64,000 bases of DNA from an uncultured bacterium (GCA_947305505.1 CAMZDX010000001.1:22621-86620); one strand, 5' to 3'. Numbered from the stretch's first letter, positions 8,405 through 64,000 are shown. Numbers and translations are program-made. Notes: generated from the sequence alone by a model not told the origin.

Positions 8405-8869
8405 ATTTTCCTCCTTTTTTAAATTTGCTCAGCCAACTGATATCGGCTAAGTCAAGTTAATTAATAAACAACTGTCTTTTGAATATTTTTGTGAATAAAA
8501 AAGACGTTTACCTCAGCGTTTTAAGACACTGCAAGTCACTACCGATGGCGCGTAGTCTCTTCTTTTACCGGCGGAATTCCGCAATGCGCAGAATCGGGAA
8601 ATCCATCCCTCTCCTCCAGTGGTTCGTTTCCTTTACTCCACTTTGAATAAACAAAAAGACGGGAGAGTTTATAGTCACGAAAAAAAATAAATCAATGTTA
8701 TATCACATCTCTTCTGATTTTCTTCAGAATTTACGGATGAATCTATAACTGAGATAAGCTGCCTATATGTTTCAAAGCATCCGAACTTTAAAAATGGATT
8801 GCCAAAAACTTCAAAACCTTGATTCTTTCTGGTATAAGCGGGCGTTTTTATCAACTATCGGAGTTCATT

Positions 8870-47116: not shown

Positions 47117-47118
47117 AT

Positions 47119-48969
47119 ATGCCTGAAACGGTAAAAAAACTTTTTAAATTCAAAAATCCCCAGTCTTATTCATACTTTATTCTGATTTTCTCGGTTTACT
47201 GGTCGATGAAGTTTTTTCTCGGCTTCTACATGTTCGACAAAGTGGGAAGCGAGACTCTGATCTTTGTGCCGCCTTTTTCCCTGCTTTTGAACGTGACCGA
47301 TATCCTTTTCTGTCTTATCGCAGCATATACCATTGATTTTATTGCAAAAAACAACAAATATTTATTTTTCATACTTACTTGGGCGACATTCCCGCCGATT
47401 TATTATTTTGCAATCAAGGGTTACATAATTTATCTCTATTTTCACGGATTCGTTAACTTCGGACTCAACAATTTCCTTGGCTCGAAAGGAAACGAAACTG
47501 TGAATTTCATTCTTTACGCTCTAGATGTTTACGCCGTCATGTTTCTGATTTTTCTCTTGATTGTCACGGTTTTATATCTGATTTTTGCAAAAAAATTGGG
47601 AAGTTTCGTTGCTGAAAAAAGAGCAGATCTTCCGATTTTCTTTCTGATAGCAGCCCTTCTTCTGCTTCCGTTCAGAATCGCTTTTTCGGAAAAATGCGAA
47701 AGAATCGACGCAAGCCCGCTTTTTGAACTTCCTTTAAGCTATCTCACCATGCCTAACTATATGCCGCGTAATTATTCCAAAGATTTCAGACCTCCGCATG
47801 AACTTATTTTCGGCAGAGAAAAAAGCAGTGTCAAAGTTGAAAAAGGAGAACTCAAAAAGAAAAGAAACATTCTGATTTTACTAATAGAATCGACATCTTA
47901 CAGTAAAAAAGAAAGACTTGGTTTCTTCAACTACTTTCAGAAAAACTCAGTCGAAGCAACAAATTTCAGAGCATGTTTCCCCGGAACCACAAGGTCTCTT
48001 ATTTCAACAATGTGCGGAACTTACAGCGGAACCGGGTTTACAGCTCTGACGCGCTATCAGCCCGATTTCACCTGCACTTCCCTGCAGAAAAAGTTAGGTG
48101 AAAACGGATACCGGACAGCTCTTTTTTCAGCAGTAAATCTTTCCTACGACGATTTTGATCAGGCAAAAATGCTTAAAGATTTTAACATCATAGAAGAACC
48201 GTCGACTTTGACGAAACGCTATACGCCGAAAAAAATCCACGGAACGGGAAACGCGATTGAAGAAGAGATTCCGATTGAAGAAATCATAAAATTCATGAAA
48301 AAAGACGAAAATCCCTTTTTCGTTTTTTACTATGTTTACTGGACTCACAGCCCTTACGAACATCCCTTCAAAGATACGGGCAACCTGCCGCTTGAAGAGC
48401 GTTACGACGAATCGCTGAAGTATGTTGACGAGTCGGTTCAGAAACTGTTTGAAAAGATGAAAGAAAACAATCTTTTCGATGAAACTGTGATAATCGCCAC
48501 TTCCGACCACGGTCAGGCTTTCGGAGAGCATCCCGGAAACTACACTCACAGCAACTACATTTACGAAGAATCGGTAAAAGTTCCGTTTATAATGAGAAGC
48601 CCCGATTTTTCAGAACAAAAACAGACAGTTGATGTAGATGCGGCACATTTTGACATTCCGGCGACAATACTCGAGTTTGCAGGAATAAAGCAGCCTGAAA
48701 ACTGGGACGGACAGTCTCTGATTTCTGGAAATTACAAGCAGAAACCGAAGCTGATGTTTTCACGCGGGATCGTTTACAGCGACGGAATCCTCGACGGCAA
48801 CTACAAATACATTTACTATCCTGACGGCAAAAAGGAAGAACTTTACGATTTAAGCACAGATCCGCTCGAAAAGAACAACATTTCAAAAGAAAACAAAGAA
48901 AAAACTGATAAATATCAGCAGCTTTTTAGAGAATGGATCCCTTATCAGCAGGATAGAATCACAAAGTAG
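47119..48969 (+). CDS. LtaS/phosphoglycerol-transferase-like sulfatase-family enzyme (N-terminal 5-TM domain + alkaline-phosphatase-like domain)
   Basis: Five N-terminal TM helices, then a sulfatase-type domain (ATSDHGQAFGEH; YWTHSPYEHPF). Confidence 0.75.
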   Translation: MPETVKKLFKFKNPQSYSYFILIFSVYWSMKFFLGFYMFDKVGSETLIFVPPFSLLLNVTDILFCLIAAYTIDFIAKNNKYLFFILTWATFPPIYYFAIKGYIIYLYFHGFVNFGLNNFLGSKGNETVNFILYALDVYAVMFLIFLLIVTVLYLIFAKKLGSFVAEKRADLPIFFLIAALLLLPFRIAFSEKCERIDASPLFELPLSYLTMPNYMPRNYSKDFRPPHELIFGREKSSVKVEKGELKKKRNILILLIESTSYSKKERLGFFNYFQKNSVEATNFRACFPGTTRSLISTMCGTYSGTGFTALTRYQPDFTCTSLQKKLGENGYRTALFSAVNLSYDDFDQAKMLKDFNIIEEPSTLTKRYTPKKIHGTGNAIEEEIPIEEIIKFMKKDENPFFVFYYVYWTHSPYEHPFKDTGNLPLEERYDESLKYVDESVQKLFEKMKENNLFDETVIIATSDHGQAFGEHPGNYTHSNYIYEESVKVPFIMRSPDFSEQKQTVDVDAAHFDIPATILEFAGIKQPENWDGQSLISGNYKQKPKLMFSRGIVYSDGILDGNYKYIYYPDGKKEELYDLSTDPLEKNNISKENKEKTDKYQQLFREWIPYQQDRITK

Positions 48970-51900
48970 CTACTTGATTTCTTTAGTTTTTAGTCCCGAA
49001 ATTTCTACAAGTTTTCTGCCTGAATCAGTGCAGAGCACGATCGATTTTCTGTCTGCAATGCAAAAACCTTTTGAAGGGATATTTTGCTGAAAAAATTCGA
49101 TTTTTCCGATTGAAACGGGAAGAACGAGTTTGTTTGCCATAATCAGAGCGGTTTGAAGCATTGAATCGATCAAAGTCGGCGTAATTGTTGAAGATTTATT
49201 GAAATCTGAGAATGAAAGTTCTCTTTTTTCTCCGCGGATCCATGAGGCTAGACAAAAATCTTTTTTAAGAGACAAAACTTCTTTTATGTGACGGAAAAAT
49301 TTCCCGTGAAAAACAGGTTTCGGAATAAATTTTTCAATATCAAGCGGCTTTTTAGAAATTTTCGGAAGTACAACCGAACAGCTCTGGCATTTTAAATTAT
49401 CAAAATAAAATTCGCATGTTACAACATTTTGAGAAAAACCGTCAAGGCTCGTCCGCAGCACTGCAACAATCAAATTATCCGAATTTTTAGAGACTGCGGC
49501 AAAAGAACGGAGCTCTATTGGCGAGGCATCTGAAAAAATAACCGGCGAAGAAATTTTAATATTTTTTATCTCTCTCAAATTTCTGCTCCCGGCAATCAGC
49601 GCTGCATTTTTGGAAAGCAGCTCCAGGATAAAAACGATCGGAAGAACAACCGCTCCGTTTACAACATGGTCGAGAAGATAAACATCCTGATTTATTGACA
49701 TTTTTGTCTGAGTTACAATTTCAGTTTTCGGAATAAAACGGATGATCCTCGTATTTTTCGAGCTGCTCAGACTGCTGTATTCGGGATATAAATTCGCCTC
49801 AAGATGCTGGGCAAGCCTTCCCGTAACGACCGAAATCTTTGAATCGGAAAAAATGATATCTTTGTAAGCCTCAACGCCGTCGTTTGTTGAAAGCGGAACG
49901 ACACCGACACTTTTGAGATAGTCGATGACATTGTCTTTTTTGCCCATGCCGGTTTCGTTCCACACGGTATAACCGACTGATTTTGCCGGAATATTCATTT
50001 TATTTAAAAGCAGACACAGATAGTCCAGCCAGCTGTTTGCAAAAGTGTAGTCGGCCTGCATCCTCATTCCGGTTTTTGCAAGAACGGACGAAATCAAATG
50101 AACGAATTTCAGGTTTTCGGTGTCACAGAGAGATAAAATATCAAGCAGACTGCCAACTTTTACAGCCAGACACCTGTCAAAACTGCTTTTTTCCATATCC
50201 TGAAAAAGTGCATAGTTGCTGATTCCAGCTCCATGCAGGATTCCGCTGATTTTTCCGTGATTTTTTATGATTTCTTTAATAGTTTTCTTGGTTTTTGCAC
50301 TGTCAGACAAATCGCATGAATAGTAAAAAACATCCTGCGCATACTTTTTCAAAGCCGTCATATTTGCAAGTGTTTTCGAACCGACTCTGAAAACTTCATC
50401 TTTTTCTGTTGAACCGACAAGAACAAAACGGCATTGCAGAATTCTGCTCAATGCAAGAGTATGCTCGAAAGTTATCCCTTTTGCTCCGCCGGTAACGAGA
50501 ACCAAGTCGGCCTTATCACATAACACATTATATTTATTTGATTTTTCGCTGTATGATTCGACTGCCGCCCAGGTTTTTCTATTTAAATTTTCATCGTAAA
50601 CAATGTGCATATTTCCGTTTATGAAAGCTTCAGACTCCTTTTTTATCAAAAGTCGAGTTATCGGTTCATCAATATTTTCATGGATCGAAAGCCACAGAAA
50701 TTCACCGTGCGTGTACTCCAGGCGCAAGGTTTTGAGAAGTGCCGCAGCAGGATTCAAAGAATCTGCAATATCTGAAAAACGCGAAACAAAAACAAGTCTG
50801 AATTTTGAGTGTATCGGATCTTTATCTTTTAAAAACAGCTTTAATTCAGCAAAAACATTTTCAGAGAATTTTGCAAAATTCTTTTTTAAACCATTAAAAT
50901 CATTAAATTTATTTATTTTGTCGGTATAAAAAACGAAAGTGTCGGTTTTTGATGCCGGATCACCTTTTCCATGCTTTGAAAAAGGAGCATCGCAAAGCCT
51001 GATTTCAAAAGTTTTTATCCATTCAGGAATAACACCTGGAGTTGTAAGCGATGCTTTTTTATCATTTCTGAGATCTGTTTCCGAGTAACTTTCAGCAGCG
51101 TCAGCCTGCATCGTATCAATGATTTCCCGGATCGTGGATTCCGAAAAAAGTGTCGGACTTGCAATAATTTCACCCGGTTTAATCTTTCTTCCCAAAGCAA
51201 GCATAAACTCGGCACCTTTTAAAGAATCAAAATTCAAATCATATTTGAGATTCATATCAATGTTTATATTTTCCTTAGCGAAACCGGTCTTGTCTGCAAT
51301 CCAGTTGATTGCAAAATCGTAGATATTTTCTTCTTTTTCTGATGTTTTTTCGTCTGAATTTTTCTTCTCCGCAGGCTCTTTTTCCAAAGGATTCGCGATA
51401 AACGAATGTCTCTGCAACTTATTGAAATCAAAAGGCAATTTGCTGTTTTTATTTAACAGATTTCCGTTCAGCCAAAGAAGAGCAACTATTGAAAGAATGG
51501 ATTTCTGCGGAGTTTTTTCAGCACCATCGGTTGCCTCCGACAAAAAATCAGTTTTCAGAATATCTGGAAGAAGTGATTTCAAAACATCTTTAGGACCGCA
51601 TTCGATGAAAAGATTTATCCCGGAATCATTCATATTTTTTATCGTTTCGCAGAAATTTACAGGCTTTAGAATCTGCTCTGACAAATATTCTGCAAAATCA
51701 GCACAGTCAGCTTTTTTGGCTGTAACAGTTGAAAAAAGAGGCAGTTTTTTGCTATGTTTAAAACTGATTTTTTTGAGAAATTTTTTGAAATCGCCAGCCG
51801 CCTTTTTCATAAAAACAGAGTGGAAAGCATTGGAAACATTGAGTTTTTTATAACCAATAGAAAGGACATCAAGGAAGCTTGCAAGTTTTTCTATTTCAGT

Positions 51901-54186
51901 TTCCGAACCCGAAAGAACGACCTGCTTTTCAGAATTTATGTTGGCAAAATTGAGTTTCGCTTTTGAACTTTTCAAAATGTTTTCTGCCGTCTCGAAGTCG
52001 CAGAAAAGCGCTATCATGCCGGTGTTTTCAGTGCTTCCCGACATGAGCAGACCTCTTTTTGCCGCGATTTTTACGGCAACGGTATCAGGAATCACGCCTG
52101 TTGCGCACAAAGCAGTGATTTCTCCCAGGCTGTGTCCTGTAAAATAAATGTCTGAAAGTGAATATTTTTTCAAAACATCAAGAAAAACAAGCGATGTTGC
52201 AACAATTGCGGGCTGAGCATATTTTGTCAGGGTAACTGCCGCATCTTTCGATTTTAAATCCGAATCCGAATATTTCCAGCGGTTTTCAAGAACGAAACCG
52301 GCAATTCCTTCTGGAATTATTTCTTTAACGGCTGAATCGAGCTTGTTGAAATACTCTTTTTCTTCTGGAAAACTTGTCAGAATTTCAGCGAGCATTCCGA
52401 AATACTGGCTTCCCTGCCCCGGAAACATGAATGCCGCGGCTGAAGAGTTCTTTTCTGCCGAAAATCCGCATGACAAAGAAGCATCAAAAAACGAATTTTT
52501 CTTTTTGATTTCAGAGATGAGCGTTTCGCACTTATCCTGGAATGACGAGGGATTATCCGCTACGACCGCAGCTTTATAACCGTTTGATTTCACTGATTTA
52601 TTGTATTTTTCAGAGAAATCTGAAATTTCAGAAGAACTCATATTTTTTGCAGCTTCTGCAATTTTTGAGATCTCATTTTCGAGAGCCTTTTTCGTCGGAG
52701 CCGAAACCATGAACATAAACGAGCTTGTCTCCGGTTCTACTTTTGCGGCAGGATAAATTTTCCTCTCTTTTTCAGGAATAAATTCTTCCATTGTTATGTG
52801 CGCATTCGATCCGCCGAAGCCGAAAGCGCTGACTGAAGCCCTGCGCTTGTGCTCATGCGCCGTCCATATTCTGCCTTCCATCGAAGGCTGCAGGAATTCC
52901 GGCGGTCTGCCGAAAGCCGAATTCGGAATAAAACATCCTGTCGTCGGCGGAATAAAATGATTTTCAAGAGCAAGTAGAGCCTTTATCGCACTGAATGCAC
53001 CGGCAGCTGCCTTCAAATGACCGATATTCGCCTTCAGGCTTCCGATATAGGAAACATCTTTTTTCTTTTTGCTCATAACCGAAAGCAGGGCTTCGATCTC
53101 TGCCGCATCGCCGCGCACTGTGCCGGTGCCGTGACCTTCGAAATAATCGACTGAATCAATTGTGTATCCTGCTTTTCTGTAAGTTTTTTGAAGAGCGACC
53201 GCCTGACCTTCAGCTTTCGGAGCCGTTATCGCTTCACCGTTTCCGTCGGAAGAAAAGGCAAAACCTTTGATTACCGCTTTGGGAACAAAACCGTATTCAA
53301 GCGCGGTTTTCAAATCGGCCAGAAGCAGAAGTGCGCAGCCCTCGCCCGGCAGCATTCCGTTTGCACGGATATCATAAGGGAGAATATTCTCTTTCGCAAA
53401 AGCACCAACCTTGGAAAATCCGACATATTCAAAAGGATCGAGACTTATATCTACTCCGCCGCAGAGTGCAAAATCAAGATCGCCCGATTCAATGGCAAAG
53501 CAGGCGTTTATTACCGATAGCAGAGAAGATGAACACGCGCCGTCAACAGTATATGCGCCGCCGCGGAAATCAAAGAAGTTGGCAATCCTTCCGGCAATAA
53601 TGTTCGACATTCCGCCTGTCAGCGAATCTTCGTTGATTTCAGGCAGCATTCCGACCATATCTTTTTCAAACTGGGCTGCAATTTCTGCTTTTGCATCGGA
53701 ATCAAGTTCAAAGTGGTTCAAAGCCCGATTCAACCTGTCTTTTATCGTGCTGAAACGCGATTTTAGAGTGAAACTTCTGGCAAATTCGCCCGTAATGCTG
53801 TTGCCGATAACCACACCTTTTCTGCTCGGATCAATTTGTTTTAAGAAACCGAATTTATTCAACAATTTATCGGCAGTATCAAGAGCCAGCCAGTGAGTTA
53901 TGTCGTAGTGTTCCGCACTCAGCGGAGAAATTTTGTATTTCAGCGGATCGAACTTCCAATCGGTAATCAAGGCCATGAGGCGGGTCGCGCTTTTATCCGG
54001 AACATTTCCGTTTTTTGAATAGTAGAGTTCTTCGGGCAGCCTGACATCGGGCATGATCCTGAACTCTTTTTTTCTTTCCATTACGGTTTTCCATACATCC
54101 GCCGGAGTTTTTATACCTGGCCCTATGCATGAAAAATCAAGAACGGCTACTTCACGTTTATTGATGACGCCCATGAAATCTCCCAA
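48970..54186 (-). CDS. Type I polyketide synthase, PfaA-like single module (KS-AT-ACP-KR-DH), 1738 aa
   Basis: KS domain: TVDGACSSSLL, EGHGTGT, NIGHLKAAAG. AT domain: FTGHSLGEITAL, AFHS. ACP domain: LNFDSLKGAEF. KR domain: VLVTGGAKGITFEH. DH domain: LLDHVVNGAVVLP. Confidence 0.85.
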   Translation of the reverse strand: MGDFMGVINKREVAVLDFSCIGPGIKTPADVWKTVMERKKEFRIMPDVRLPEELYYSKNGNVPDKSATRLMALITDWKFDPLKYKISPLSAEHYDITHWLALDTADKLLNKFGFLKQIDPSRKGVVIGNSITGEFARSFTLKSRFSTIKDRLNRALNHFELDSDAKAEIAAQFEKDMVGMLPEINEDSLTGGMSNIIAGRIANFFDFRGGAYTVDGACSSSLLSVINACFAIESGDLDFALCGGVDISLDPFEYVGFSKVGAFAKENILPYDIRANGMLPGEGCALLLLADLKTALEYGFVPKAVIKGFAFSSDGNGEAITAPKAEGQAVALQKTYRKAGYTIDSVDYFEGHGTGTVRGDAAEIEALLSVMSKKKKDVSYIGSLKANIGHLKAAAGAFSAIKALLALENHFIPPTTGCFIPNSAFGRPPEFLQPSMEGRIWTAHEHKRRASVSAFGFGGSNAHITMEEFIPEKERKIYPAAKVEPETSSFMFMVSAPTKKALENEISKIAEAAKNMSSSEISDFSEKYNKSVKSNGYKAAVVADNPSSFQDKCETLISEIKKKNSFFDASLSCGFSAEKNSSAAAFMFPGQGSQYFGMLAEILTSFPEEKEYFNKLDSAVKEIIPEGIAGFVLENRWKYSDSDLKSKDAAVTLTKYAQPAIVATSLVFLDVLKKYSLSDIYFTGHSLGEITALCATGVIPDTVAVKIAAKRGLLMSGSTENTGMIALFCDFETAENILKSSKAKLNFANINSEKQVVLSGSETEIEKLASFLDVLSIGYKKLNVSNAFHSVFMKKAAGDFKKFLKKISFKHSKKLPLFSTVTAKKADCADFAEYLSEQILKPVNFCETIKNMNDSGINLFIECGPKDVLKSLLPDILKTDFLSEATDGAEKTPQKSILSIVALLWLNGNLLNKNSKLPFDFNKLQRHSFIANPLEKEPAEKKNSDEKTSEKEENIYDFAINWIADKTGFAKENINIDMNLKYDLNFDSLKGAEFMLALGRKIKPGEIIASPTLFSESTIREIIDTMQADAAESYSETDLRNDKKASLTTPGVIPEWIKTFEIRLCDAPFSKHGKGDPASKTDTFVFYTDKINKFNDFNGLKKNFAKFSENVFAELKLFLKDKDPIHSKFRLVFVSRFSDIADSLNPAAALLKTLRLEYTHGEFLWLSIHENIDEPITRLLIKKESEAFINGNMHIVYDENLNRKTWAAVESYSEKSNKYNVLCDKADLVLVTGGAKGITFEHTLALSRILQCRFVLVGSTEKDEVFRVGSKTLANMTALKKYAQDVFYYSCDLSDSAKTKKTIKEIIKNHGKISGILHGAGISNYALFQDMEKSSFDRCLAVKVGSLLDILSLCDTENLKFVHLISSVLAKTGMRMQADYTFANSWLDYLCLLLNKMNIPAKSVGYTVWNETGMGKKDNVIDYLKSVGVVPLSTNDGVEAYKDIIFSDSKISVVTGRLAQHLEANLYPEYSSLSSSKNTRIIRFIPKTEIVTQTKMSINQDVYLLDHVVNGAVVLPIVFILELLSKNAALIAGSRNLREIKNIKISSPVIFSDASPIELRSFAAVSKNSDNLIVAVLRTSLDGFSQNVVTCEFYFDNLKCQSCSVVLPKISKKPLDIEKFIPKPVFHGKFFRHIKEVLSLKKDFCLASWIRGEKRELSFSDFNKSSTITPTLIDSMLQTALIMANKLVLPVSIGKIEFFQQNIPSKGFCIADRKSIVLCTDSGRKLVEISGLKTKEIK

Positions 54187-54215
54187 AAAAGCCGCGCTAT
54201 TATACTCAAATTTTC

Positions 54216-55442
54216 TTAAAATGCGAGCTGGATTTCATCTTTCTGCCGAAACTCGTTTTCTATCACTTTTATTGCGTTGATCTTCTGTTCAACACTTGCG
54301 TGCTGGTAAATTTCATGCACCATAACGGATCTGTGTCCCACAAGTTCCATCACGACATTCATCGGGATCCCGTTCGCCGCGCACAGCGAGACGAAACTAT
54401 GTCGGAAACTGTGAAAACCGTAAATCGTGCTTTTTCTGAAACACCTTTCGTTTTCGACCTTGGTTTCAATACCTGCCTTTTGAAAAAAATTCTGCACCAT
54501 TGTTGCAATATTCCCTTTTGCTTTCAGATATCCTTCAGCAATTTTAGGAATAACATAGTTTGTCACATTATTTTTCTGCTCAGATTTCAACATTTTCAAC
54601 TCATCGCACAGACCGCCCAGCAGCGGTATTTCAAGGTTCCTTTTCAGGTGCTTCGTTTTATTCGGCAATCTTACAATAACTCTATTTTCAAAATCGACCT
54701 CGCTCCACTTCAAAGTAGCAGCATCACCCAGTCTGAGTCCGGTATAAAAACCGATCATGCACAAAGTTCTGATATCTCCTCGTGCATTCATAAAAATCTG
54801 TTTCAACTGTGCCTTTGAAAACGGACGCTTGGAAACATGCCCCTCGCGCTTCTTGTCGACCTCCGACCAGACGTTTTTGCGTAAGCCGGCTTCTTCCGCC
54901 AAAGCTGAAAATATCGACCTGAATTTTGTAATTCTTTCATTGTATGTGCGCTCGGCGATCCCCTTTTCCCACTCTGAACAGAGAAATTTTTCGGCAATTC
55001 CCTTGTCTATTTCGCTCAAATACCTGACATCCGGAAAATTTTTGTTCACAAATGCGACGAATTTATTCCACATACTGCGGTAATCTTCGTAGCCTCTTTC
55101 TGAAATCGTCCGTTTGCGCGGCTTCTTTTTAAAAAGCTCGAAAGTATCTTCCATTGCAACCGTTTTCACTTTTATACTGTTCAGTTCTTCGATGGCACTG
55201 CGCAAGGCCGCTTCTTTTTCCTCCGGCTCAAGAATCTCCACTTTTTTTATCACCTGTTTCAGATAAAAATACCAGTCCAGATCCAACTTCAGCTGCATAC
55301 ACCTTTCTTCAGCTTTTTTTGTTGCCTCACGAAGCGAGTTTGTCCTTGTAGATTCAACGATGCGCCTGCCGTTGATCATTACCTGAAAATAGTAGTTTCT
55401 GCTTCCTCTTTTCTTAAAAACACTAACCATTTCACGTTTCAC
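54216..55442 (-). CDS. Tyrosine-type site-specific recombinase/integrase (phage integrase family)
   Basis: Catalytic-domain residues R...HSFRHSF...LVGHRSVMVHEIYQH (R-H-R-Y tetrad region). N-terminal SAM-like/arm-binding part. 408 aa. Confidence 0.8.
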   Translation of the reverse strand: MKREMVSVFKKRGSRNYYFQVMINGRRIVESTRTNSLREATKKAEERCMQLKLDLDWYFYLKQVIKKVEILEPEEKEAALRSAIEELNSIKVKTVAMEDTFELFKKKPRKRTISERGYEDYRSMWNKFVAFVNKNFPDVRYLSEIDKGIAEKFLCSEWEKGIAERTYNERITKFRSIFSALAEEAGLRKNVWSEVDKKREGHVSKRPFSKAQLKQIFMNARGDIRTLCMIGFYTGLRLGDAATLKWSEVDFENRVIVRLPNKTKHLKRNLEIPLLGGLCDELKMLKSEQKNNVTNYVIPKIAEGYLKAKGNIATMVQNFFQKAGIETKVENERCFRKSTIYGFHSFRHSFVSLCAANGIPMNVVMELVGHRSVMVHEIYQHASVEQKINAIKVIENEFRQKDEIQLAF

Positions 55443-55544
55443 CTTTTCAAAATAAATTTATAAAATTACACCGTTTTTTACACCATTAACAGAAATAAAC
55501 CAGTCAGCCATCGCAAAAATCAAAAAAAAATCATGTATAATTAA

Positions 55545-56600
55545 CATGTTAACATACACGATGATTCTTTATATTACGGTTGTCCAAGCGGTAGTTACTA
55601 TGAAGGCGGTTCCTGCAAAACAACGAAATGCGGCGACGGAATTGTAAACAGTGAACACTGCGAAAGTGTCGGTTCTGAATATACCTGCATATTCACAGTC
55701 GGCAGAAATGAAGTTTGTGATGACGGCGGTAAAAACGGACAATATGCGGGTGTCGCTACGAGATCGAACTGCAAGAGCGACTGCAGCGGAAAAATCAAAG
55801 GCGGTTCGGAATACTTCTGCGGTGACGGAAAAGTTCAGTATAAATCTGGCGATACATGTTACGGTTCGGCATGCAAACAGGTAACTGAAGGCAACTATCC
55901 GGGTGCCACAATTTCTGCCTTCACGCAATCGGAACAGTGTGACCCGAAGAGCGGCGCCAATGACAGAGCAACTCTCTGCAAATCTAAAGGGTACGGAGAT
56001 CACAGTTACTACGACAACACCAACTCTGTTCCGAGCTGCGGAAACGACTGCAAAATAACTATAAGCCAGTATGAAGGCTGCGCTTACTGCGGAGACGGAA
56101 AGGTTCAGAAAGCAAGCGGCACTCTGACTTATGTCTCAGCTGATTACTCCAATGTTTCTGGAGCAAGTGAATACTGCGATCCGGGAAAGGATTACAACAA
56201 TGATACAGGAACCAAAGAACTCTGCAACGCGGCACTGAGTTTAACCAGAACAAGTTACTATACTCCAAGTACGCGACCAACATGTTCAGGCGGTTGTGAT
56301 AAAAGCAGCATAAAGAATGCGACACAGGGAACTAACTGCCAGTGGTGCGGTGACGGAACTGTTAACGGGTCAGAAAAATGTGATACAGGGATAAGTACTC
56401 TGTATTCCTGTTATGAAGCAACTTCATGGACAACTGGTTCTGGTAATAGTGAGGAATCGCACTCTGGTTATAATGTCTACAAAATGAATTGTTCCACCGG
56501 CTGTTCGTGGGGTAGTAAAACCTCATTGTCAACTCAATCTAGTTCTTATACTTATTCCGGTTACACAAATAAAGGAACTTGCTCCAGCTTCGGTTTATAA
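55545..56600 (+). pseudogene. 5'-truncated gene fragment of a secreted Cys-rich repeat protein (CGDGxV / 'Myxococcus cysteine-rich repeat'-like)
   Basis: Open frame of ~350 codons. It has no ATG/GTG/TTG until ~40 codons from its end and does not appear in the ORF track. Encodes repeated C-x-x-CGDGKV-x-x-x-E-x-CD motifs. The frame opens right after a TAA at 55542-44, ~100 nt from the integrase start. Confidence 0.45.
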
Positions 56601-56619
56601 ATAACCCTACAACATATAA

Positions 56620-57486
56620 ATGTGGATAGAATCTTTATTTAATGGTTTTTTAGCTTCTTATACAATAACAGCTCAGCTTTTGTTTATGTCATTTGTTTTG
56701 ATGATTCCGCTAGAGCTTTATTTGGCAGATGGATTTAATGTGTCGAAAATAAAGTTTTTCTTTTTTTCATTAATTGCCCTTTATTTTTCATACTTGTTTG
56801 CACGGATTTTTCATGCCTACTTCGATTCAAGTCAAATAATGAAAACAGTAAGAACTTTCAATTGGAAAGAGCAGTTACGCTATTTTTTATTTCCTTATGC
56901 TGGCGGAATAATGTTCTACGGTTCATTGATAGGAAGTATGGTTGGAATTTCTATCATTTATCCTGTTTTGAAAAAAGATAAAGCGGCTTATTTGAGATGT
57001 TTTGACATTACCATTATATGTTTTGCATTTACTGCAATCTTTTCCAGACTTGCTGATTTTTCATTCAGTGATTCATTTGGATTTCCTTTTGATTCCTCTT
57101 TCAGTCTAGTTTTTCCGTCTGGAAGTGCAGCTGCGAAACAACTTGCCAAACGTGGAGTTATCGAAATGGGAATGCCGACTCCGCCGCTTTTCCCGACTCA
57201 GCCGATAATGATTATGGCAAAAATCATTATCTTCTTTGTCCTTCTTCTAAAATGTTTTCAAGACAAGAAAAAAGTTCCGTTGAATTATGTGGCTTTGTAC
57301 TTCCTGATGTATGGACCTTACAGAATCTGCATTGATTTTTTCAGATTCGATGGAGCCGCATATTTTCTCGGACTGACGACTTCACAGTGGCTTTCGATTG
57401 TTTTCACTGTTCTCGCAATTTTGTATTACAAATTTTTGTATAAAAAATTGGAACAAAAATACTGCTTAAATGAGATTGCAAAATGA
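56620..57486 (+). CDS. Divergent prolipoprotein diacylglyceryl transferase (Lgt)-like membrane protein
   Basis: YAGGIMFYGSLIGSMVG resembles Lgt DGGMSFHGGLIG. IDFFRFDGAAYFLGLTTSQWLSI resembles Lgt EFFRQPDAQ...ISMGQILSI. The Lgt signature GRLGNF is SRLADF here. Confidence 0.5.
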   Translation: MWIESLFNGFLASYTITAQLLFMSFVLMIPLELYLADGFNVSKIKFFFFSLIALYFSYLFARIFHAYFDSSQIMKTVRTFNWKEQLRYFLFPYAGGIMFYGSLIGSMVGISIIYPVLKKDKAAYLRCFDITIICFAFTAIFSRLADFSFSDSFGFPFDSSFSLVFPSGSAAAKQLAKRGVIEMGMPTPPLFPTQPIMIMAKIIIFFVLLLKCFQDKKKVPLNYVALYFLMYGPYRICIDFFRFDGAAYFLGLTTSQWLSIVFTVLAILYYKFLYKKLEQKYCLNEIAK

Positions 57487-58823
57487 AGAAAACACTTTTA
57501 GTGATCTTGATTCTGATTTGTTTCATAGGTTGTCGGAAAAATAGTGAAAAAAATAAAGATTTAATCACTGGCGAGAAATTTGTTGAAACAAATTCGGTTG
57601 AAAATCTTTACGACGCTGTCGTTGTCGGCGGCGGTCTTTCCGGACTGTCGGCGGCCTATAATTTGCAAAAAGAACTCGGCGAAAATGCGAAAATACTGCT
57701 TCTTGAAAAGGAAAACAGACTCGGCGGGAAGATTCTTACTAAAAAATTTAATAACGATATTTATGAACTTGGAGCTTCTTTTGATTATGGTAAAGCTTAC
57801 GCGCCAAAAGGTTTTGAACCGTCGGAACTTGTAAAACTCAGTAAAAATTATGGTGTATATTTAGACGGTACTCTATATTCTGCCGGGAACATCCCGGAAT
57901 TACTGCGAAAAATAGATCCTAAAAATGCCCGTTTTTTCAGTGAATTCGATAAAAATCAGAATATAAACAAACTCTTCGATTCAGTGTCTGATGATGTGAA
58001 AAAAGCAATAGAAAGTTCTTTTAAAGTAATTCATTTCGGAGAATTTAAAGATTATATAGACGAGAGAAAGAAAGATGCTTTTAAGACCTATAATTTGGAT
58101 TTTCATGTAAAAGGAAATTATGAGTTTTTGGATTTTTACACGAAAATTTTGAAAGGAAACTATCTTCTCGGTGCTGAAGTTGAATCTATTGAACAAAAAG
58201 GCAATGAGATTCTGGTTCAATATAAAAAAGGCAGTAAAACCAATGTGTTGAAAGCCAGAAGTGTAATTGTTGCAACTCCGGCAACAGTTACGCAAAAAAT
58301 TGTAAAAAATATGAAAGAGGAATCAGAAAATTTCGTAAAATCAGTAAGATATACAAAAACTTTTGTCGTCGTTTTTATAACAAACAGAAATAAACCGATA
58401 GATTTTTCTTATATATTGACCCCTGATAAAGTTTTCAACTTTTTTACAACTTCATTTTCTGTTGATAAAAAACGAAATATTTTCAGTATTTATTTTACAG
58501 ATGCTTTTATAAATTTGCACCAGGATTGGAAAAATGATGATTATATCAAAGCTGCATACAAAGATTTTCAATCCATGCAACTTGTTGATCTGGACATGGA
58601 TTTGCTGCACATAGATTCATGCTTTTGGGAAGAAGAAGGCCCCGTGATTTCAGAAAAAACATACAAGAATTTCAGTGAAACCGCTTTGAATCCGATTACA
58701 GGTGTCTTTCTGGCAGGCGATTACACATTTTGGAACGAATATAAAATTCCTTATGGTATTCCGCCGGCATATTTTAGCGGAAGAAAAGCCTCCAAAAAGG
58801 TTGTCGAATATTTGAAAAGATAA
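57483..58823 (+). CDS. Exported FAD-dependent oxidoreductase (amine-oxidase/protoporphyrinogen-oxidase-like) lipoprotein
   Basis: Lipoprotein signal MKKTLLVILILICFIGC. Dinucleotide-binding motif DAVVVGGGLSGLSAAYNL...LLLEKENRLGGK. Overlaps the Lgt-like gene by 4 nt. Confidence 0.7.
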   Translation: MKKTLLVILILICFIGCRKNSEKNKDLITGEKFVETNSVENLYDAVVVGGGLSGLSAAYNLQKELGENAKILLLEKENRLGGKILTKKFNNDIYELGASFDYGKAYAPKGFEPSELVKLSKNYGVYLDGTLYSAGNIPELLRKIDPKNARFFSEFDKNQNINKLFDSVSDDVKKAIESSFKVIHFGEFKDYIDERKKDAFKTYNLDFHVKGNYEFLDFYTKILKGNYLLGAEVESIEQKGNEILVQYKKGSKTNVLKARSVIVATPATVTQKIVKNMKEESENFVKSVRYTKTFVVVFITNRNKPIDFSYILTPDKVFNFFTTSFSVDKKRNIFSIYFTDAFINLHQDWKNDDYIKAAYKDFQSMQLVDLDMDLLHIDSCFWEEEGPVISEKTYKNFSETALNPITGVFLAGDYTFWNEYKIPYGIPPAYFSGRKASKKVVEYLKR

Positions 58824-58850
58824 ACATCTCGCATTTCCCAAAAAATTGAA

Positions 58851-58868
58851 TATAATAGCGCGGTTTTG
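58851..58868 (+). promoter_or_regulatory. Conserved promoter-like motif TATAATAGCGCGGTTTTG (copy 1), ~15 nt upstream of the ATG of the AlbA_2/HTH gene
   Basis: Identical 18-mer recurs at 60413-60430 upstream of the next gene. Contains a consensus TATAAT. Confidence 0.4.
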
Positions 58869-58883
58869 AATGCGTGAGGAAAC

Positions 58884-60380
58884 ATGAACGATATTTTTAG
58901 TATAGTTAAAGAGTTGTGTTCATACCCGGCGGAAAGGGAATGGTTTGAATTCAAGCACAACTGGTTTGAGCCTGAACAACTCGGTCAGTATATTTCCGCA
59001 TTATCCAACAGTGCGGCTATGGAAGGCCGCAGCAAAGCGTATTTTGTATGGGGAATAGACGACAAAACACACGATATTGTCGGAACGGATTTTGATTCTG
59101 ACTGCAACGTAAAAAATGAACCTTTGAAACATTTTCTTTTTCGCGGACTTTCGCCGGATGTAAATTTTATTTTTGAAGAAGCTGTAATCGACGGCAAAAG
59201 AATCGTGCTTCTTACGATACCGGCAGCGAAAACTGTTCCGGTATCCTTCTCAGGCGAGCGTTTTATCAGAATAGGAAGCAGCAAGGAGAATTTGCGGAAA
59301 TATCCCGAAAAAGAGTCGTATCTTTTCGAGGTTTTGCGTCACGGCTTGCCGACGATAGAAAACACTCCTTCTCAATATCAGGATCTTACATTTGAAAAAC
59401 TGCTTATTTACTACGGTGCGAAGGGGATAAGGCTGAATGAAGATACCTTCAAAAAGAATCTCGGCTTTTTTACTTATGACGGCAAATACAACATTCTTGC
59501 CCAGCTCATGGCGGACAATTCTCATTTGCCGTTAAGATTCGCAATATTTTCAGGGAAAACCAAAACATCTACATTGTTTTCCGTGCGTGAGTTCGGGTAT
59601 CAGTGCCTTTTGTATTCCCTTGACGAAGTTCTGCGTTACGGTGATGTTTTGAATATAATTCAGGCAGACGAGCGCAACCGCATAGTGGAGCGGAAAGAAA
59701 CGGCTTTGTTTGAAAACGATGCTTTCCGCGAGGCAATGATAAACGCTTTTGTGCACAACAAGTGGGTGGAAGGAAACGAACCCATGATTTCTGTGTTTTC
59801 CGACAGAATTGAGATACTTTCCCGCGGAACATTCCCGCCGGAACAGACATTGGAAGGCTTCTTTGCAGGAGAATCGGTTCCTGTAAACCAGAAACTTTCG
59901 GAGATTTTTCTGCAGTTGCACATAAGCGAAAAGACAGGGCGCGGAGTTCCGAAAGTAATCGAAAAATACGGCAGAGATGCTTATGAATTCCGGGAAAATT
60001 CGATTGTTGTAAAAATTCCGTTCAGATGGATCAATGTTTTAGGCGAAGACAATGCTCCCGAAGAGGTGAAACAGTTTAAAGTCAAAGGTGCAACTACCCC
60101 AAAAACTATACCAGAAACTATACCAGAAACTATACCAAAAACTATACCAAAAACTATACCAAAAACTATACCAAAAAACACTCAGGAAAAGATACTGAAA
60201 CTGATTGCTGAAAATCCTCGTATAACTCAAAAACAGATGGCTGAAGCCTGCGGTATTTCATTGGCAGGAATAAAGTGGCAGGTAATGCAGATGAAAGAAA
60301 AAATTGAATTTGTCGGCTCACGCAAAACGGGTTATTGGAAAATATTGTCTGAAACTGATAAAACATCAAATAATGATTGA
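58884..60380 (+). CDS. AlbA_2 ('divergent AAA'/Schlafen-like) domain protein with C-terminal winged-HTH and internal (TIPE/TIPK)6 repeat
   Basis: N-terminus ...PAEREWFEFKHNWFEPEQLGQYISALSNSAAMEGRSKAYFVWGIDDKTHDIVGT... is typical of AlbA_2/RecG-C-terminal-like putative DNA-binding proteins. C-terminus ILKLIAENPRITQKQMAEACGIS... is an HTH. Confidence 0.7.
   Translation: MNDIFSIVKELCSYPAEREWFEFKHNWFEPEQLGQYISALSNSAAMEGRSKAYFVWGIDDKTHDIVGTDFDSDCNVKNEPLKHFLFRGLSPDVNFIFEEAVIDGKRIVLLTIPAAKTVPVSFSGERFIRIGSSKENLRKYPEKESYLFEVLRHGLPTIENTPSQYQDLTFEKLLIYYGAKGIRLNEDTFKKNLGFFTYDGKYNILAQLMADNSHLPLRFAIFSGKTKTSTLFSVREFGYQCLLYSLDEVLRYGDVLNIIQADERNRIVERKETALFENDAFREAMINAFVHNKWVEGNEPMISVFSDRIEILSRGTFPPEQTLEGFFAGESVPVNQKLSEIFLQLHISEKTGRGVPKVIEKYGRDAYEFRENSIVVKIPFRWINVLGEDNAPEEVKQFKVKGATTPKTIPETIPETIPKTIPKTIPKTIPKNTQEKILKLIAENPRITQKQMAEACGISLAGIKWQVMQMKEKIEFVGSRKTGYWKILSETDKTSNND
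60105..60176 (+). repeat. 12-bp tandem repeat x6 (ACTATACCAGAA x2, ACTATACCAAAA x4) encoding TIPETIPETIPKTIPKTIPKTIPK
   Basis: Perfect in-frame tetrapeptide repeats seen in the sequence, in the linker between the AlbA_2 domain and the HTH. Confidence 0.8.
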
Positions 60381-60412
60381 CATTTTTCCTTTAGCAATTC
60401 CAAAAAACCGAG

Positions 60413-60430
60413 TATAATAGCGCGGTTTTG
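60413..60430 (+). promoter_or_regulatory. Conserved promoter-like motif TATAATAGCGCGGTTTTG (copy 2), ~13 nt upstream of ATG 60444
   Basis: Identical to 58851-58868. Confidence 0.4.
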
Positions 60431-60443
60431 TTTCGGAGATTCA

Positions 60444-60926
60444 ATGGAAATCGCAATTCTTGTCGCAACGCTCCCTTTTATCTGGTATTTTTTTAGAAAA
60501 ATAGGATTTTCCCTGATTGCTTCAATGGTTGTTGCAACAGTTTTGGAAATTGTGAATGAAACCGTGTTCGCCGATGTCGGAACTTTTTATCCGAAAGTCA
60601 TGATTCCGTTCCCGTTTTTCAATTTTCCGGTTATGATTGTTCTACTTGGAGGACTTTATTCGGGAATTATTAATTTTGCGGCTTTAAAAGTATCCAAATT
60701 TTTTAAGAAAAGATTTTTGTCGGCAAGTGTATTTCTGCTTTCAGCCGCCTTGATGAACATAATTTCAATACTTATAGAAAGTGTCGGAATTTATTCAGGA
60801 TTTTGGGTGCACAAACAGCCTTCCGGCATCTCTGCGATTTATTTCGCGGTTTATGTTTACTATCTTCTTATTGTGTTTTCGGCGTCGGTTTTTATCGTTT
60901 CCGGTTTTTTCCATAAAAAATCTTAG
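60444..60926 (+). CDS. Small membrane protein (160 aa, 4-5 TM), hypothetical
   Basis: Hydrophobic ORF with a GGAGA RBS; no motif recognised. Confidence 0.5.
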   Translation: MEIAILVATLPFIWYFFRKIGFSLIASMVVATVLEIVNETVFADVGTFYPKVMIPFPFFNFPVMIVLLGGLYSGIINFAALKVSKFFKKRFLSASVFLLSAALMNIISILIESVGIYSGFWVHKQPSGISAIYFAVYVYYLLIVFSASVFIVSGFFHKKS

Positions 60927-61020
60927 TGTCGCAATAAATCAAATTTTTTCAGGAATTGCGGGAAAACACAAAAATTTCTGCCGTTACGTAAAAAAATTGC
61001 GAAAAACATCTTTATCTTCG

Positions 61021-61110
61021 TTTATCGCTTGGAATCGTGCAAAATACGACTTGACAAAAGCTTGGAATCGTGCAAAATCAGCAAAGTTTATCGCTTGGAA
61101 TCGTGCATGA
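61021..61110 (+). promoter_or_regulatory. Three direct repeats of GCTTGGAATCGTGCA(AAAT) spaced ~33 nt apart, overlapping a TTGACA -35-like hexamer, immediately upstream of the ATPase gene
   Basis: Copies at ~61027, ~61061 and ~61093; the last ends 7 nt before RBS/ATG 61117. Confidence 0.5.
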
Positions 61111-61116
61111 GGTACC

Positions 61117-62466
61117 ATGAAACGTAAGATTTACAATGAGTTGCTTGAGTGGAAACTTAAACGGAAAGGAAAAACGGCAATAATGATTGACGGGGCAAGG
61201 CGTATCGGCAAAAGCTACATCGCCGAAGAGTTTGCTAAAAACGAATATAAATCTTACATTCTCGTCGATTTCAACCACACTGACAAACGCCTGTTCGAGA
61301 TTTTCGACAACTACATCCACGACCTCGGCATGTTTTTCATGCAACTTTCGACTTATTACGGCGTCAAGCTTTATGAACGGGATTCCCTCATCATTTTCGA
61401 CGAAGTCCAGCTTTATCCGAAAGCGAGAGCTGCAATCAAATATCTTGTTGCCGACGGAAGATACGATTACATCGAAACGGGTTCGCTTGTCAGCATAAAC
61501 CGGAATGTCAAGGAGATCGTGATTCCTTCTGAAGAACACAGGATGGCAATGTATCCTATGGATTTTGAAGAATTTCTCTGGGCGCTTGGTGATGAAACGA
61601 CGATGTCGTTTATCAGGCACTGTTTCGAACATAATCAGCCGCTTGGTCCTCTGCACCGCAAGACAATGGATCTTTTCCGTCTGTATATGATTGTCGGCGG
61701 AATGCCGCAGGCCGTCCTTACCTTCCGCGAGAAGAGAGATTTTGATGAGACCGATGCGGCAAAACGCGACATTCTTGCCCTTTACCGCGCTGACATTGAA
61801 AAATATGCCGTCGGTTACGAAAGCAAAGTCAAAAGCATTTTTGACTGGATTCCGGCAGAACTTCAGCGCCACGAAAAGCGCTTCAAACTGGCCGATCTGT
61901 CGGAAAACGCCCGTTTCCGCAGTTATGAAAGCTCCTTTTTCTGGCTTACCGATGCAAAGATCGTGAACATCTGCTATGCGGCGACCGAACCGACAGTCGG
62001 GCTGAAAATGCGTGCCGACAACACTTCGCTGAAATGTTACATGGCCGATACCGGACTGCTTATTTCCCATACTTTCGACGAAAAAGTCATCGCAAATGAA
62101 AAACTTTACAACCGCCTTCTGCTAGACAAACTTGAGATAAACAAAGGAATGCTGGTTGAAAATATCGTCGCCCAGATGCTTTGCGCAACGGGACACAAAC
62201 TTTATTTCTATTCGTCATACTCGAAAAAAGAGGCTGCCGACCGCATGGAAATTGATTTTCTCGTGCAGAAGCCCGATCTCACGAACCGCCACAATATCTC
62301 TCCGATCGAAGTCAAATCGACCACGAGATACACGACTTCATCCCTCGGAAAATTCGCCGCAAAATACGCTGAACAGCTCTCGACGCAATATGTGCTGCAC
62401 ACGGCAGATTTTCAGGAAAAGGACGGAATTCTATATCTTCCGCTTTACATGACGCCGCTGCTGTAA
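61117..62466 (+). CDS. COG1373-type ATPase (AAA_14 + DUF4143)
   Basis: MKRKIYNELLEWKLKRKGKTAIMIDGARRIGKSY... is the P-loop region and family-typical N-terminus. 449 aa. Confidence 0.75.
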   Translation: MKRKIYNELLEWKLKRKGKTAIMIDGARRIGKSYIAEEFAKNEYKSYILVDFNHTDKRLFEIFDNYIHDLGMFFMQLSTYYGVKLYERDSLIIFDEVQLYPKARAAIKYLVADGRYDYIETGSLVSINRNVKEIVIPSEEHRMAMYPMDFEEFLWALGDETTMSFIRHCFEHNQPLGPLHRKTMDLFRLYMIVGGMPQAVLTFREKRDFDETDAAKRDILALYRADIEKYAVGYESKVKSIFDWIPAELQRHEKRFKLADLSENARFRSYESSFFWLTDAKIVNICYAATEPTVGLKMRADNTSLKCYMADTGLLISHTFDEKVIANEKLYNRLLLDKLEINKGMLVENIVAQMLCATGHKLYFYSSYSKKEAADRMEIDFLVQKPDLTNRHNISPIEVKSTTRYTTSSLGKFAAKYAEQLSTQYVLHTADFQEKDGILYLPLYMTPLL

Positions 62467-62660
62467 AACTTGTTGAAAATGAAACGACTGATGATTCATA
62501 CCCTGGCGTAAAAACTTGTGTAAATTTTTGCGCATCTCCTAATCTACAAAAGTCACAGCATGGTGTGGACGCATGATGCATTTAAAAGACCTGGACGCGA
62601 CCCAGTCACCCCATCTGCCTCATGGGGAGTCCCGCCTAACGGCTCGACTTTGTCTCGATA

Positions 62661-63842
62661 TCACAAATCTTCCGAAAGAAGAAAATCCTTCATTTTTATG
62701 TGCTGAACATTGCTTGTAGAATAGTCAACATCGTCATTTGTGATTATGATTTTTTTGTCGATCTGATCCAGCTGGTTGAATGCGCTGAACTCTCTTTCGT
62801 AGGCTTTGTCGTCCGCCACGCTGTATGCAACTTGAATGTAATATTTTTTTCCTGCTTTTTCGCACAAGAAATCAATTTCCCTGCCGTTTTTGTTGAAGAC
62901 CTGCAGTTTGCAGTCACGGTAAAGCAGCTCGTTGAAAACTATATTTTCAAAATTGTGCGTCAGATCATAGCGGTTCCGCTCGCATCTTATCGAATTAAAG
63001 GCGACATCTTCATTGTAGATCTTCACATAAAAAGAAAGTTCGCGTTTTGTTTTGGCGGAATACTGCCTGATACTTTCAATAATATATGCTTCTTCGAGGT
63101 AACTCAGATATTTCATTACAGTGTTGACAGAGCATGAATCGTGTTCTTGTTTTACGTAGTCGTGGATAGATTTTACCGAGAAGATACGTGAATTCGAGCG
63201 CAGGACATAATTTACGAGAGCAACGAAAAGCGATGTTTTTTTGATCCGGTAGCGGCGGATAAGATCGTTTATTACAATGGTGTTGTCAAGATCAGTAAGA
63301 TATCTGCGGAGAGCTGTTTCATCGGGCATTTCAAGCCGTCCGGGAAAACCTCCCCAAATGATGTAGTCGCTGACTGAGACCTCTTTCCCAAGTTGGGAGG
63401 CATATTCCACAAGTTCACGATAAACAAAAGGTCTTATCCTGAAAGAGACGAAACGGCCGCTGAGTTCCTTGGTAAATTCACCTGAAAGAAGTTTCGAGTT
63501 CGAACCGGTTATAAACACCGATGTGTCGTAAAGGCGAAGCGTTTTGCAGGCATCCTGCCACCCGTCAAGCTCCTGCACCTCGTCCAAAAAGAGATAAAGT
63601 TTTTCTGGTTTTCTGTTTTCTTTGACATAATTGATCAGATCCAGGGAATTCCGGATAGTTGAAGTCGTCAGCTTGTCCTCGAAATTCAAAAAGATAACAT
63701 TTTCGTGTTTTTCTCTGATCTCATCCATGATCTGCGAAAGTATCACCGATTTTCCGCAACGCCTGATCCCTGTAATGATTTTGACAAGATCAGATTCGTA
63801 AAACGGACGAACCTGATTTATGTAATGTTCGCGTATTATCAT
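62661..63842 (-). CDS. COG1373-type ATPase (AAA_14 + DUF4143), second divergent copy
   Basis: MIIREHYINQVRPFYESDLVKIITGIRRCGKSVIL.... Start refined to ATG 63840-42 with a GGAGGTG RBS; the track start at 63881 is GTG. Confidence 0.75.
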   Translation of the reverse strand: MIIREHYINQVRPFYESDLVKIITGIRRCGKSVILSQIMDEIREKHENVIFLNFEDKLTTSTIRNSLDLINYVKENRKPEKLYLFLDEVQELDGWQDACKTLRLYDTSVFITGSNSKLLSGEFTKELSGRFVSFRIRPFVYRELVEYASQLGKEVSVSDYIIWGGFPGRLEMPDETALRRYLTDLDNTIVINDLIRRYRIKKTSLFVALVNYVLRSNSRIFSVKSIHDYVKQEHDSCSVNTVMKYLSYLEEAYIIESIRQYSAKTKRELSFYVKIYNEDVAFNSIRCERNRYDLTHNFENIVFNELLYRDCKLQVFNKNGREIDFLCEKAGKKYYIQVAYSVADDKAYEREFSAFNQLDQIDKKIIITNDDVDYSTSNVQHIKMKDFLLSEDL

Positions 63843-63866
63843 ACCACACCTCCAAAAAGATAATAC

Positions 63867-63942
63867 TGAAAACTTTTTCACATTTCAAGAAAAGTTTTCA
63901 CTGCCACTGAAAACTTTTTCGGATTTTGGTAAAAGTTTTCAG
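63867..63942. promoter_or_regulatory. Two tandem AT-rich palindromes (TGAAAACTTTTTC-N~10-GAAAAGTTTTCA, x2) upstream of the minus-strand ATPase gene; candidate operator
   Basis: Motif/inverse-motif pattern A-A'-A-A' seen at ~63867, 63888, 63908 and 63930. Confidence 0.4.
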
Positions 63943-64000
63943 TTTGTGGAAATATAAAATACTTTACGGATTTTTTCACGAATTGCGGGAGGATTATGGG

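Follow-up and report, generated by a model that had tools for sequence, protein, structure and literature searches.

The G segment of phage Mu and the C segment of phage P1 are inverted by Gin and Cin, and inversion exchanges the variable C-terminus of S together with a partner gene, U or U'. Both phages use serine invertases, short inverted repeats and an enhancer. The sap genes of Campylobacter fetus have shared 5' ends and a movable promoter, and their rearrangement is RecA-dependent. In the shufflon of R64/IncI plasmids, the tyrosine recombinase Rci adjoins 5'-less segments, and inversion swaps the C-terminus of a surface/adhesion protein (PilV) while the N-terminus stays constant (PMC5430464, PMC11852207). 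Programmed gene-altering inversions, for example at hsdS with an adjacent Xer-like recombinase, combine a long gene, a short inverted pseudogene copy, intragenic inverted repeats and a nearby recombinase (Milman et al., 2023; PMC9881135), and intragenic invertons have also been described (PMC10028968). Here we analyze a stretch of 64,000 nucleotides (nt) from an uncultured bacterium (GCA_947305505.1, CAMZDX010000001.1:22621-86620; hereafter the window), in which a Cys-rich reading frame without an N-terminus lies beside the genes for a tyrosine recombinase (the integrase) and a polyketide synthase (PKS). Our preferred explanation, to which we give a probability of about two in three, is that this frame is the silent partner of a shufflon-type, gene-altering inversion switch that swaps a C-terminal cassette and the partner genes downstream of it. 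We are highly confident of the anatomy (homology, inverted geometry, both orientations and module exchange) and moderately so of programmed switching catalyzed by the integrase. The contigs used for comparison include L001-L004, L013 and L014, from the same species as the window, and L015, L016 and L018, from three further lineages with integrases 71-77% identical.

In the proposed switch, the target would be a very large, Cys-rich protein, secreted or on the cell surface, that ends in a cassette of ~340 residues with CGDG repeats. A second, promoter-distal copy of the cassette, lacking the N-terminus, would lie inverted and adjoining the Xer-like recombinase. Recombination in the part shared by the two copies would flip the intervening 8-9 kb and, with the frame preserved over the crossover, give the giant gene the other variable 3' part and tail, while the displaced cassette would end up parked beside the recombinase. 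The genes behind the swapped tail would come along, either an LGT-like gene and an amine oxidase gene or the gene for a 340-amino acid (aa) membrane protein. In the window, the LGT-linked cassette would be the parked one, and just beyond position 64000 we would expect the right repeat arm, the giant gene and the gene for the 340-aa protein. We infer reversibility within a population, catalysis by the adjacent recombinase and a cassette that sets binding, anchoring or antigenicity.

Six-frame translation of positions 55300-56750 revealed a single frame, on the plus strand, open from 55545 to 56597 and closed by a stop at 56598-56600. This silent C-terminal cassette (55545..56600, +), delimited by the translation and by its homologues, consists of 351 codons encoding a Cys-rich domain with 28 Cys and four CGDG motifs, and it has neither an N-terminus nor a signal peptide. 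From base composition, the probability of 351 codons without a stop is ~1e-9 and the expected number of such frames in the window is ~1e-5, so the frame is coding sequence and not due to chance. The first-pass annotation, which had pointed to a start-less, Cys-rich frame of ~1 kb about 100 nt from a tyrosine recombinase gene and had considered it unlikely to arise by chance, was correct on both counts. The only in-frame canonical starts (ATG, GTG or TTG) are an ATG at codon 314 (56484) and a TTG at codon 328. With 1 Met, 14 Val and 9 Leu in the cassette, ~4.7 start-like codons are expected and 2 are observed, and the expressed copies in relatives are equally start-codon-poor; the scarcity is largely an effect of amino acid composition. 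Selected avoidance of start codons was likewise considered and rejected, the expressed copies being just as poor. The cassette had no Pfam or NCBIfam match even at E<=1, and neither TIGR02232 (cysteine-rich acidic repeat) nor DUF4215 matched it at that threshold. An AlphaFold2 model from 5 sequences had a mean confidence score (pLDDT) of 31.

A search of 5.8 billion proteins with the cassette returned four relatives only, P0001-P0004, of which P0001 and P0002 are 74-81% identical to it and begin MYNYHVNIHDDSLYYGCPSG. In L001-L004 the PKS, integrase and cassette follow one another in the same order as in the window, and L001 and L002 also have, ~9 kb from the cassette and on the other strand, a gene of 3,923 residues. 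The C-terminal ~340 residues of this giant protein (L001: ...IRCYYGCPSGSYYENGSCKETKCGDG...) are colinear with the cassette to its stop, and the cassette was also aligned with the giant of L013 (3,920 aa; close-relative giants have 3,920-3,923 aa). Homology extends from the codons for YYGCPSG onward, and both arms encode YYGCPSGSYY... in frame to their stops. By blastn, window positions 55572-56228 match L001 20377-19724 on the minus strand at 84%, and within L001 the cassette and giant copies form a 666-nt inverted repeat of 90% identity with arms 9,006 nt apart. The DNA homology starts sharply at TATTACGGTTGTCCAAGCGG, 5' of which the cassette has a non-coding leader and the giant gene its constant region; the repeat arm visible in the window, as defined by blastn, alignment and sliding identity, occupies 55572..56383 (+). 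Because of this colinear homology and the inverted repeat, the frame is a copy of the 3' end of the giant gene without its N-terminal part.

The giant target family has no Pfam or NCBIfam assignment. The giant of L018 (4,471 aa) contains a Laminin_G_3 lectin-like domain and a borderline TIGR02232 match (21.9 bits, cut-off 20.8), with DUF4215 below its cut-off. A search with the constant region of the giant returned P0003 only and not the 3,920-aa proteins themselves, and scans of genome and metagenome contigs with the cassette alignment yielded only relatives of 26-39% (L005, L006, L010-L012), which were uninformative.

The DNA between the two copies differs in orientation between strains. Window positions 45533-56383 are colinear with L001 1-10842 at 91%, and positions 56911-63998 match L001 19038-12150 in reverse (both by blastn). 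The right segment is also reversed with respect to L002 and L004 (blastn) and to L013, which is 96% identical to the window and whose counterpart of 60435-63991 runs the other way with respect to the integrase. Within the window, the invertible segment therefore has its body at 56911..64000, where genes for a 160-aa protein and two AAA_14/DUF4143 proteins are found; in all, five related contigs have the opposite orientation, among them L001, L002, L004 and L013. The gene order in L001 is integrase (-), cassette (+), 340-aa gene (+), AAA393 (+), AAA449 (-), 160-aa gene (-), KilA-N (-), LGT-Lcl_C-amine oxidase (-) and giant (-), and in the window it is integrase (-), cassette (+), LGT (+), amine oxidase (+), Schlafen/AlbA_2 (+), 160-aa gene (+), AAA449 (+) and AAA393 (-), followed by the window end. 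Judged from gene order, these would be the expected products of one inversion between two cassette copies.

The same tails were found both parked and expressed. A tail ending ..C(S/T)SLNN is parked by the integrase in L001 and L002 (P0002, ..CSSLNN) and ends the 3,920-aa giant in L013 (..CTSLNN). In L003 and L004 the parked cassette has the P0001-type tail, with a 339-aa gene behind it, and in L007 and L008 this combination is fused to the giant constant region; the parked and fused versions have 87% DNA identity over 1.6 kb, compared with just 65% for the constant regions. In L001 and L018 the LGT-linked tail comes after the giant gene, and in the window and L015 it comes after the leader. 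Each tail is thus accompanied by downstream genes of its own. In the window the cassette-specific tail, which is LGT-linked and orthologous to that of L015, spans 56384..56597 (+) and ends ..GTCSSFGL.

The pairing of integrase and cassette is conserved. The integrase stands at the same place, between the PKS gene and the cassette position, in all seven related contigs of the species, among them L001-L004, L013 and L014. In the other lineages, the integrases of L015 (77%), L016 (71%) and L018 (75%) are divergent from Cys-rich CGDG frames of 333-400 codons without an N-terminus or signal peptide, and the neighbors otherwise differ (MM_CoA mutase, LGT-sulfatase, PKS). In L018 all that the parked cassette has in common with the 4,471-aa gene is a 51-nt inverted repeat of 92% identity at the 5' boundary, the C-terminal regions being otherwise unrelated, a layout typical of site-specific gene-altering inversions. 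All eight cassette copies examined are stop-free and without frameshift, with Cys conserved, and in a four-way cassette alignment the indels inside the cassette bodies are multiples of 3. The ratio of non-synonymous to synonymous substitution rates (dN/dS) between cassettes is 0.27-0.57. A stop in the window leader (described below) in front of 351 intact codons fits selection that acts when the cassette is attached to the giant and not when it is parked.

An in-frame ATG does lie four codons upstream of the cassette frame, within the leader sequence ATG TAT AAT TAA (55533..55544, +). In the window the TAA replaces a Tyr codon, TAC, of the relatives, for which gene callers give proteins of 351-356 aa starting MYNYHVNIH. 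Because this ATG overlaps a conserved TATAAT (55536-55541), has no Shine-Dalgarno sequence upstream of it (an A9 tract occupies 55522-55530), is missing in L018 and L015, where GTATAAT and ATATAAT, respectively, are kept, and is followed in the window by the TAA with the frame intact behind it, the ATG of the relatives is fortuitous and not a real start. The A9 tract is A8 in L003, L004 and L013, a length-variable homopolymer just 5' of the conserved TATAAT. A palindrome, TTAACATGTTAA (55541-55552), was tried as a core recombination site and rejected, being imperfect in relatives. Farther upstream, between integrase and cassette, the leader contains a direct heptamer repeat, TTACACC-N6-TACACC (55466..55484, +), a candidate operator or recombinase-binding (arm) site. 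It is the sole match in the window and recurs at this position in L001-L004 and L013, and L018 has three copies (8124-8142, 8281-8299 and 9946-9969). The extra L018 copies are inverted and lie within an 870-nt gene-free gap. A promoter and terminator scan of 54-57 kb gave nothing exceeding shuffled expectation.

The proposed invertase is encoded at 54216..55430 (-). It was listed with 408 aa from a GTG at 55442, and 404-aa homologues support a start at ATG 55430, giving 404 aa; the gap to the cassette is 102-114 nt, and the two genes are divergent. The protein matches PF00589 (E=2e-19; 70 bits, cut-off 27.1), its best NCBIfam models are XerA/XerC/XerD-like, all scoring far below their (equivalog) cut-offs, and its catalytic R, H-x-x-R, H and Y (YTGLRLGD, HSFRHSF, GHRS, IYQH) align to the XerA structure 5hxy. 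It has many homologues. On the other side lies a PfaA-like PKS gene (48970..54174, -; 1734-aa orthologues, with KS/AT/KR/DH domains), the conserved left flank outside the switch. Its 1734-aa homologues and a GGGAGAT ribosome-binding site place the start at ATG 54174 and not at the listed TTG 54186, so that the distance of 29 nt to the integrase stop, which holds for the listed start, becomes 41 nt from the probable one. The first-pass annotation also took the integrase to be transcribed in series with the PKS; this is doubtful because a repeated promoter-like module containing TATAAT, discussed below, separates the two genes.

Several observations weigh against a programmed switch. The two orientations were seen between strains and samples only, with no one clone or sample showing both. 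The window holds one repeat arm only and shows no giant gene for this strain, nor is there one on the 12-kb contig L015. L013 has no parked cassette; in its place is the 3' third of a sulfatase gene (L013 9262-9845), 75% identical to the sulfatase adjoining the L016 integrase. The junction, TATTACGGTTGTCCAA|ATCTCAGG, lies 16 nt into the 20-mer at the 5' boundary and looks like microhomology with an L016-type sulfatase gene. It was not possible to define a short repeated core site, the only repeats found being those of 51-666 nt. Sliding identity showed that the first ~170 nt of the repeat (55572-55730) are position-specific, with 93-100% identity among parked copies and 60-82% between parked and expressed ones; that 55700-55985 is 85-100% identical across all copies; that 3' of 55985 the window cassette is a mosaic of different relatives; and that the tail at 56384-56597 is unique to the window. 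Because the first ~170 nt are position-specific and the stretch at 55700-55985 is common to all copies, crossovers likely fall in this shared core and not at the sharp 5' boundary. The boundary 20-mer as the main crossover site was rejected on the same grounds and on the apparent microhomology at the L013 junction. The integrase family, moreover, is not intrinsically an invertase family: a 51%-identical homologue, P0037, has an HTH_17 excisionase-like gene for a neighbor, the arrangement of ordinary mobile elements, and since this relative is an ordinary element integrase, an invertase role would represent domestication within this clade. Finally, a 666-nt inverted repeat of 90% identity could be flipped by general homologous recombination too.

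The crossovers in the core, the lack of a short core site and the microhomology-like L013 junction keep general, RecA-type recombination a serious rival, though on balance we regard it as unlikely. It holds that the inversions or gene conversions are real and that the integrase is a bystander or the relic of a decayed mobile element. The long inverted repeat suits this explanation, as do cassettes that are mosaics of one another, a crossover zone that coincides with the most similar ~280 nt in place of a boundary site, and 51%-identity integrase relatives that sit in ordinary integrative elements. A bystander, however, would not be expected to stay paired with the cassette in four lineages despite differing flanks, nor to keep its catalytic motifs under a dN/dS of 0.12. 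The 51-nt repeat of L018, between cassettes otherwise unrelated, is also short for a RecA-driven inversion.

A second rival, which we consider improbable, is that the frame is a dead duplicated fragment, i.e., an ordinary pseudogene, or a small protein with a MYNY start that has been lost here by nonsense mutation. The gene calls in relatives and the single TAC-to-TAA change by which the window differs from them are what the small-protein version would predict. A protein with 28 Cys and without signal peptide or ribosome-binding site is nevertheless implausible, and its ATG, which L015 and L018 lack, overlaps the conserved TATAAT. A pseudogene, for its part, is hard to reconcile with eight copies in four lineages that all keep an open frame and their Cys and have a dN/dS below 1, and with tail types that exchange with the giant gene.

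The weakest rival, that an integrase-borne element inserted in or deleted part of a Cys-rich gene to leave an island junction with cargo on one side, draws on the 5'-less frame adjoining a tyrosine integrase, on strain-variable genes of mobile or defense type nearby (Schlafen/AlbA_2, KilA-N in relatives, AAA_14/DUF4143) and on the lower GC content at 56-61 kb, but it is very improbable given that every related contig has the integrase, that the cassette boundary is the same in all, that the supposedly missing 5' part belongs to a separate giant gene in inverted orientation, that the frame is under purifying selection, and that the window has no tRNA and the locus neither flanking direct repeats nor an excisionase. 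This was the interpretation of the first-pass annotation, and parts of it endure: the frame is indeed a copy of a larger gene's 3' part that lacks the 5' end, its proximity to the recombinase is meaningful, and the right side is plastic. What does not endure is the cut by insertion or deletion, for the boundary is identical in every strain and the integrase-cassette pair recurs in three lineages with other neighbors, and with it the island junction. The comparisons that had been proposed gave no relative without the integrase among the related contigs, where it occupies the same site in L001-L004, L013 and L014 (a finding that the annotation had itself named as refuting), and no flanking direct repeats, those touching the integrase being inverted. 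No Xis-like gene was found at the locus, unlike the situation at P0037 with its HTH_17 neighbor. The question of which side is cargo falls away, the 55-64 kb side being an invertible segment and not inserted cargo.

The promoter-like module between integrase and PKS belongs to a set of three. Module a (..CTCGCATTT..TTGAGTATAATAGCGCGGCTTT; 54188..54230, -) reads toward the PKS gene and is the left arm of a 43-nt inverted repeat of 81% identity, of which module b (58825..58867, +) is the right arm; module c lies at 60400..60432 (+). The modules share the pattern ..CTCGCATTT..TTGAGTATAATAGCGCGGTTTT.., followed by GGAG and ATG, and each lies immediately behind the stop codon of a gene and ahead of the following one. 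Their 20-mer has 3 copies in the window compared with 0.01 expected, and L001 has module copies at 8672, 15736 and 16842. The inverted modules a and b bracket integrase, cassette, LGT and amine oxidase genes, and the segment at window positions 54250-58817 is inverted in L015. Modules b and c bracket a strain-variable gene (58884..60380, +), which is of the Schlafen/AlbA_2-HTH type here and KilA-N in L001 and L004. Overlapping invertible segments would make the locus a true multi-inversion shufflon, a suggestion that draws on comparison between species. We advance only tentatively, as a reading more likely wrong than right, that one domesticated Xer-like integrase flips overlapping segments in these uncultured gut spirochaete-like bacteria. 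A flip between cassette arms would swap the C-terminus of the giant and the accompanying enzyme set (lipid- or redox-modifying LGT-like protein and amine oxidase, or 340-aa membrane protein), and a flip between modules would turn the integrase-cassette unit and rewire the genes behind the promoters. If this is true, each tail, with its Cys-x-x-x-G-L-type end, would need its own enzyme for C-terminal modification or anchoring.

The genes that travel with the window tail encode an LGT-like membrane protein (56620-57486, +; Pfam LGT, 3e-22) and a flavin adenine dinucleotide (FAD)-dependent amine oxidase-like protein (57483-58823, +; Pfam Amino_oxidase, 1.7e-22). Because the former scores 59 bits with TIGR00544, below the cut-off of 118.9, it is a divergent paralogue and not the housekeeping Lgt. 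In L001 the LGT-like, Lcl_C and amine oxidase domains are fused in one 819-aa protein. Most tails (window 56560-56597, P0001, P0003, P0004 and the L001 giant) end with a conserved Cys and five further residues, as in CSSFGL, CSSLGL, CSYYGL and CASLGL. This Cys, together with the separate membrane or enzyme genes of each tail type, hints at a cassette-specific modification of the C-terminal Cys.

Other repeats were observed in the window. In the Schlafen-like protein, a 12-nt tandem repeat of ~8 copies (60080-60199) encodes TIPE/TIPK units between the AlbA_2/HATPase_c_4 part and the C-terminal HTH. Upstream of an AAA_14/DUF4143 gene lies a near-perfect, hairpin-forming inverted repeat of 39 nt (ACTGAAAACTTTT...), with arms 1 nt apart (63865-63943), which is kept in L001 (12206-12284) and L013 (9136-9214). 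Away from the locus, there are two repetitive open reading frames at 20116-21810 (-) and 34543-36531 (+), one Cys-rich with 102-nt (34-aa) tandem repeats and the other Gly/Asp-rich with 9-nt repeats of the GGC GAC GGC type. Two paralogous minus-strand genes of ~690 aa have 3' parts that are 85-93% identical and ~4 kb apart (2302-2853 and 6360-6905; direct repeats D4 and D7).

If the inversion switch is confirmed, uncultured gut or rumen spirochaete-like bacteria would vary the tip of a giant Cys-rich surface protein by programmed inversion, and the switches operated by tyrosine recombinases would gain a new target family and a Mu-like layout of cassette plus partner gene. The switch would also explain assembly breaks and mis-orientation in the region and the odd 350-aa 'proteins' without signal peptide that are called there. 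More generally, the locus is a warning that an integrase beside a truncated gene is not always an island junction.

Compared with the R64 shufflon, the locus is alike in having a tyrosine recombinase and C-terminal swapping. It differs in that no 19-bp sfx-like sites were found, the repeats being 51-666 nt of coding homology, and in that the recombinase matches Xer-like models and not a dedicated shufflon-invertase model. The target is also far larger (~3,900 aa), the 8-9-kb segment contains unrelated genes, and the host is a spirochaete-like chromosome and not a plasmid. The locus is a member of neither the Rci/sfx family nor the integrative islands. With the Mu G segment it shares a cassette that has its own partner gene (LGT-like and amine oxidase, or 340-aa membrane protein), though Mu and P1 differ from it in their serine invertases and short repeats, where this non-phage locus has a tyrosine recombinase and a long repeat. 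As in the S-layer system of C. fetus, shared blocks of large surface protein genes are exchanged by a multi-kb inversion, but here it is the 3' ends that are exchanged and a recombinase is adjacent. The text of PMC9881135 makes no mention of Treponema, Spirochaet- or cysteine; the inversions described there (Milman et al., 2023) are like this locus in having a full-length gene opposed by a shorter, truncated copy, coding inverted repeats, a recombinase nearby, both orientations and a preserved reading frame.

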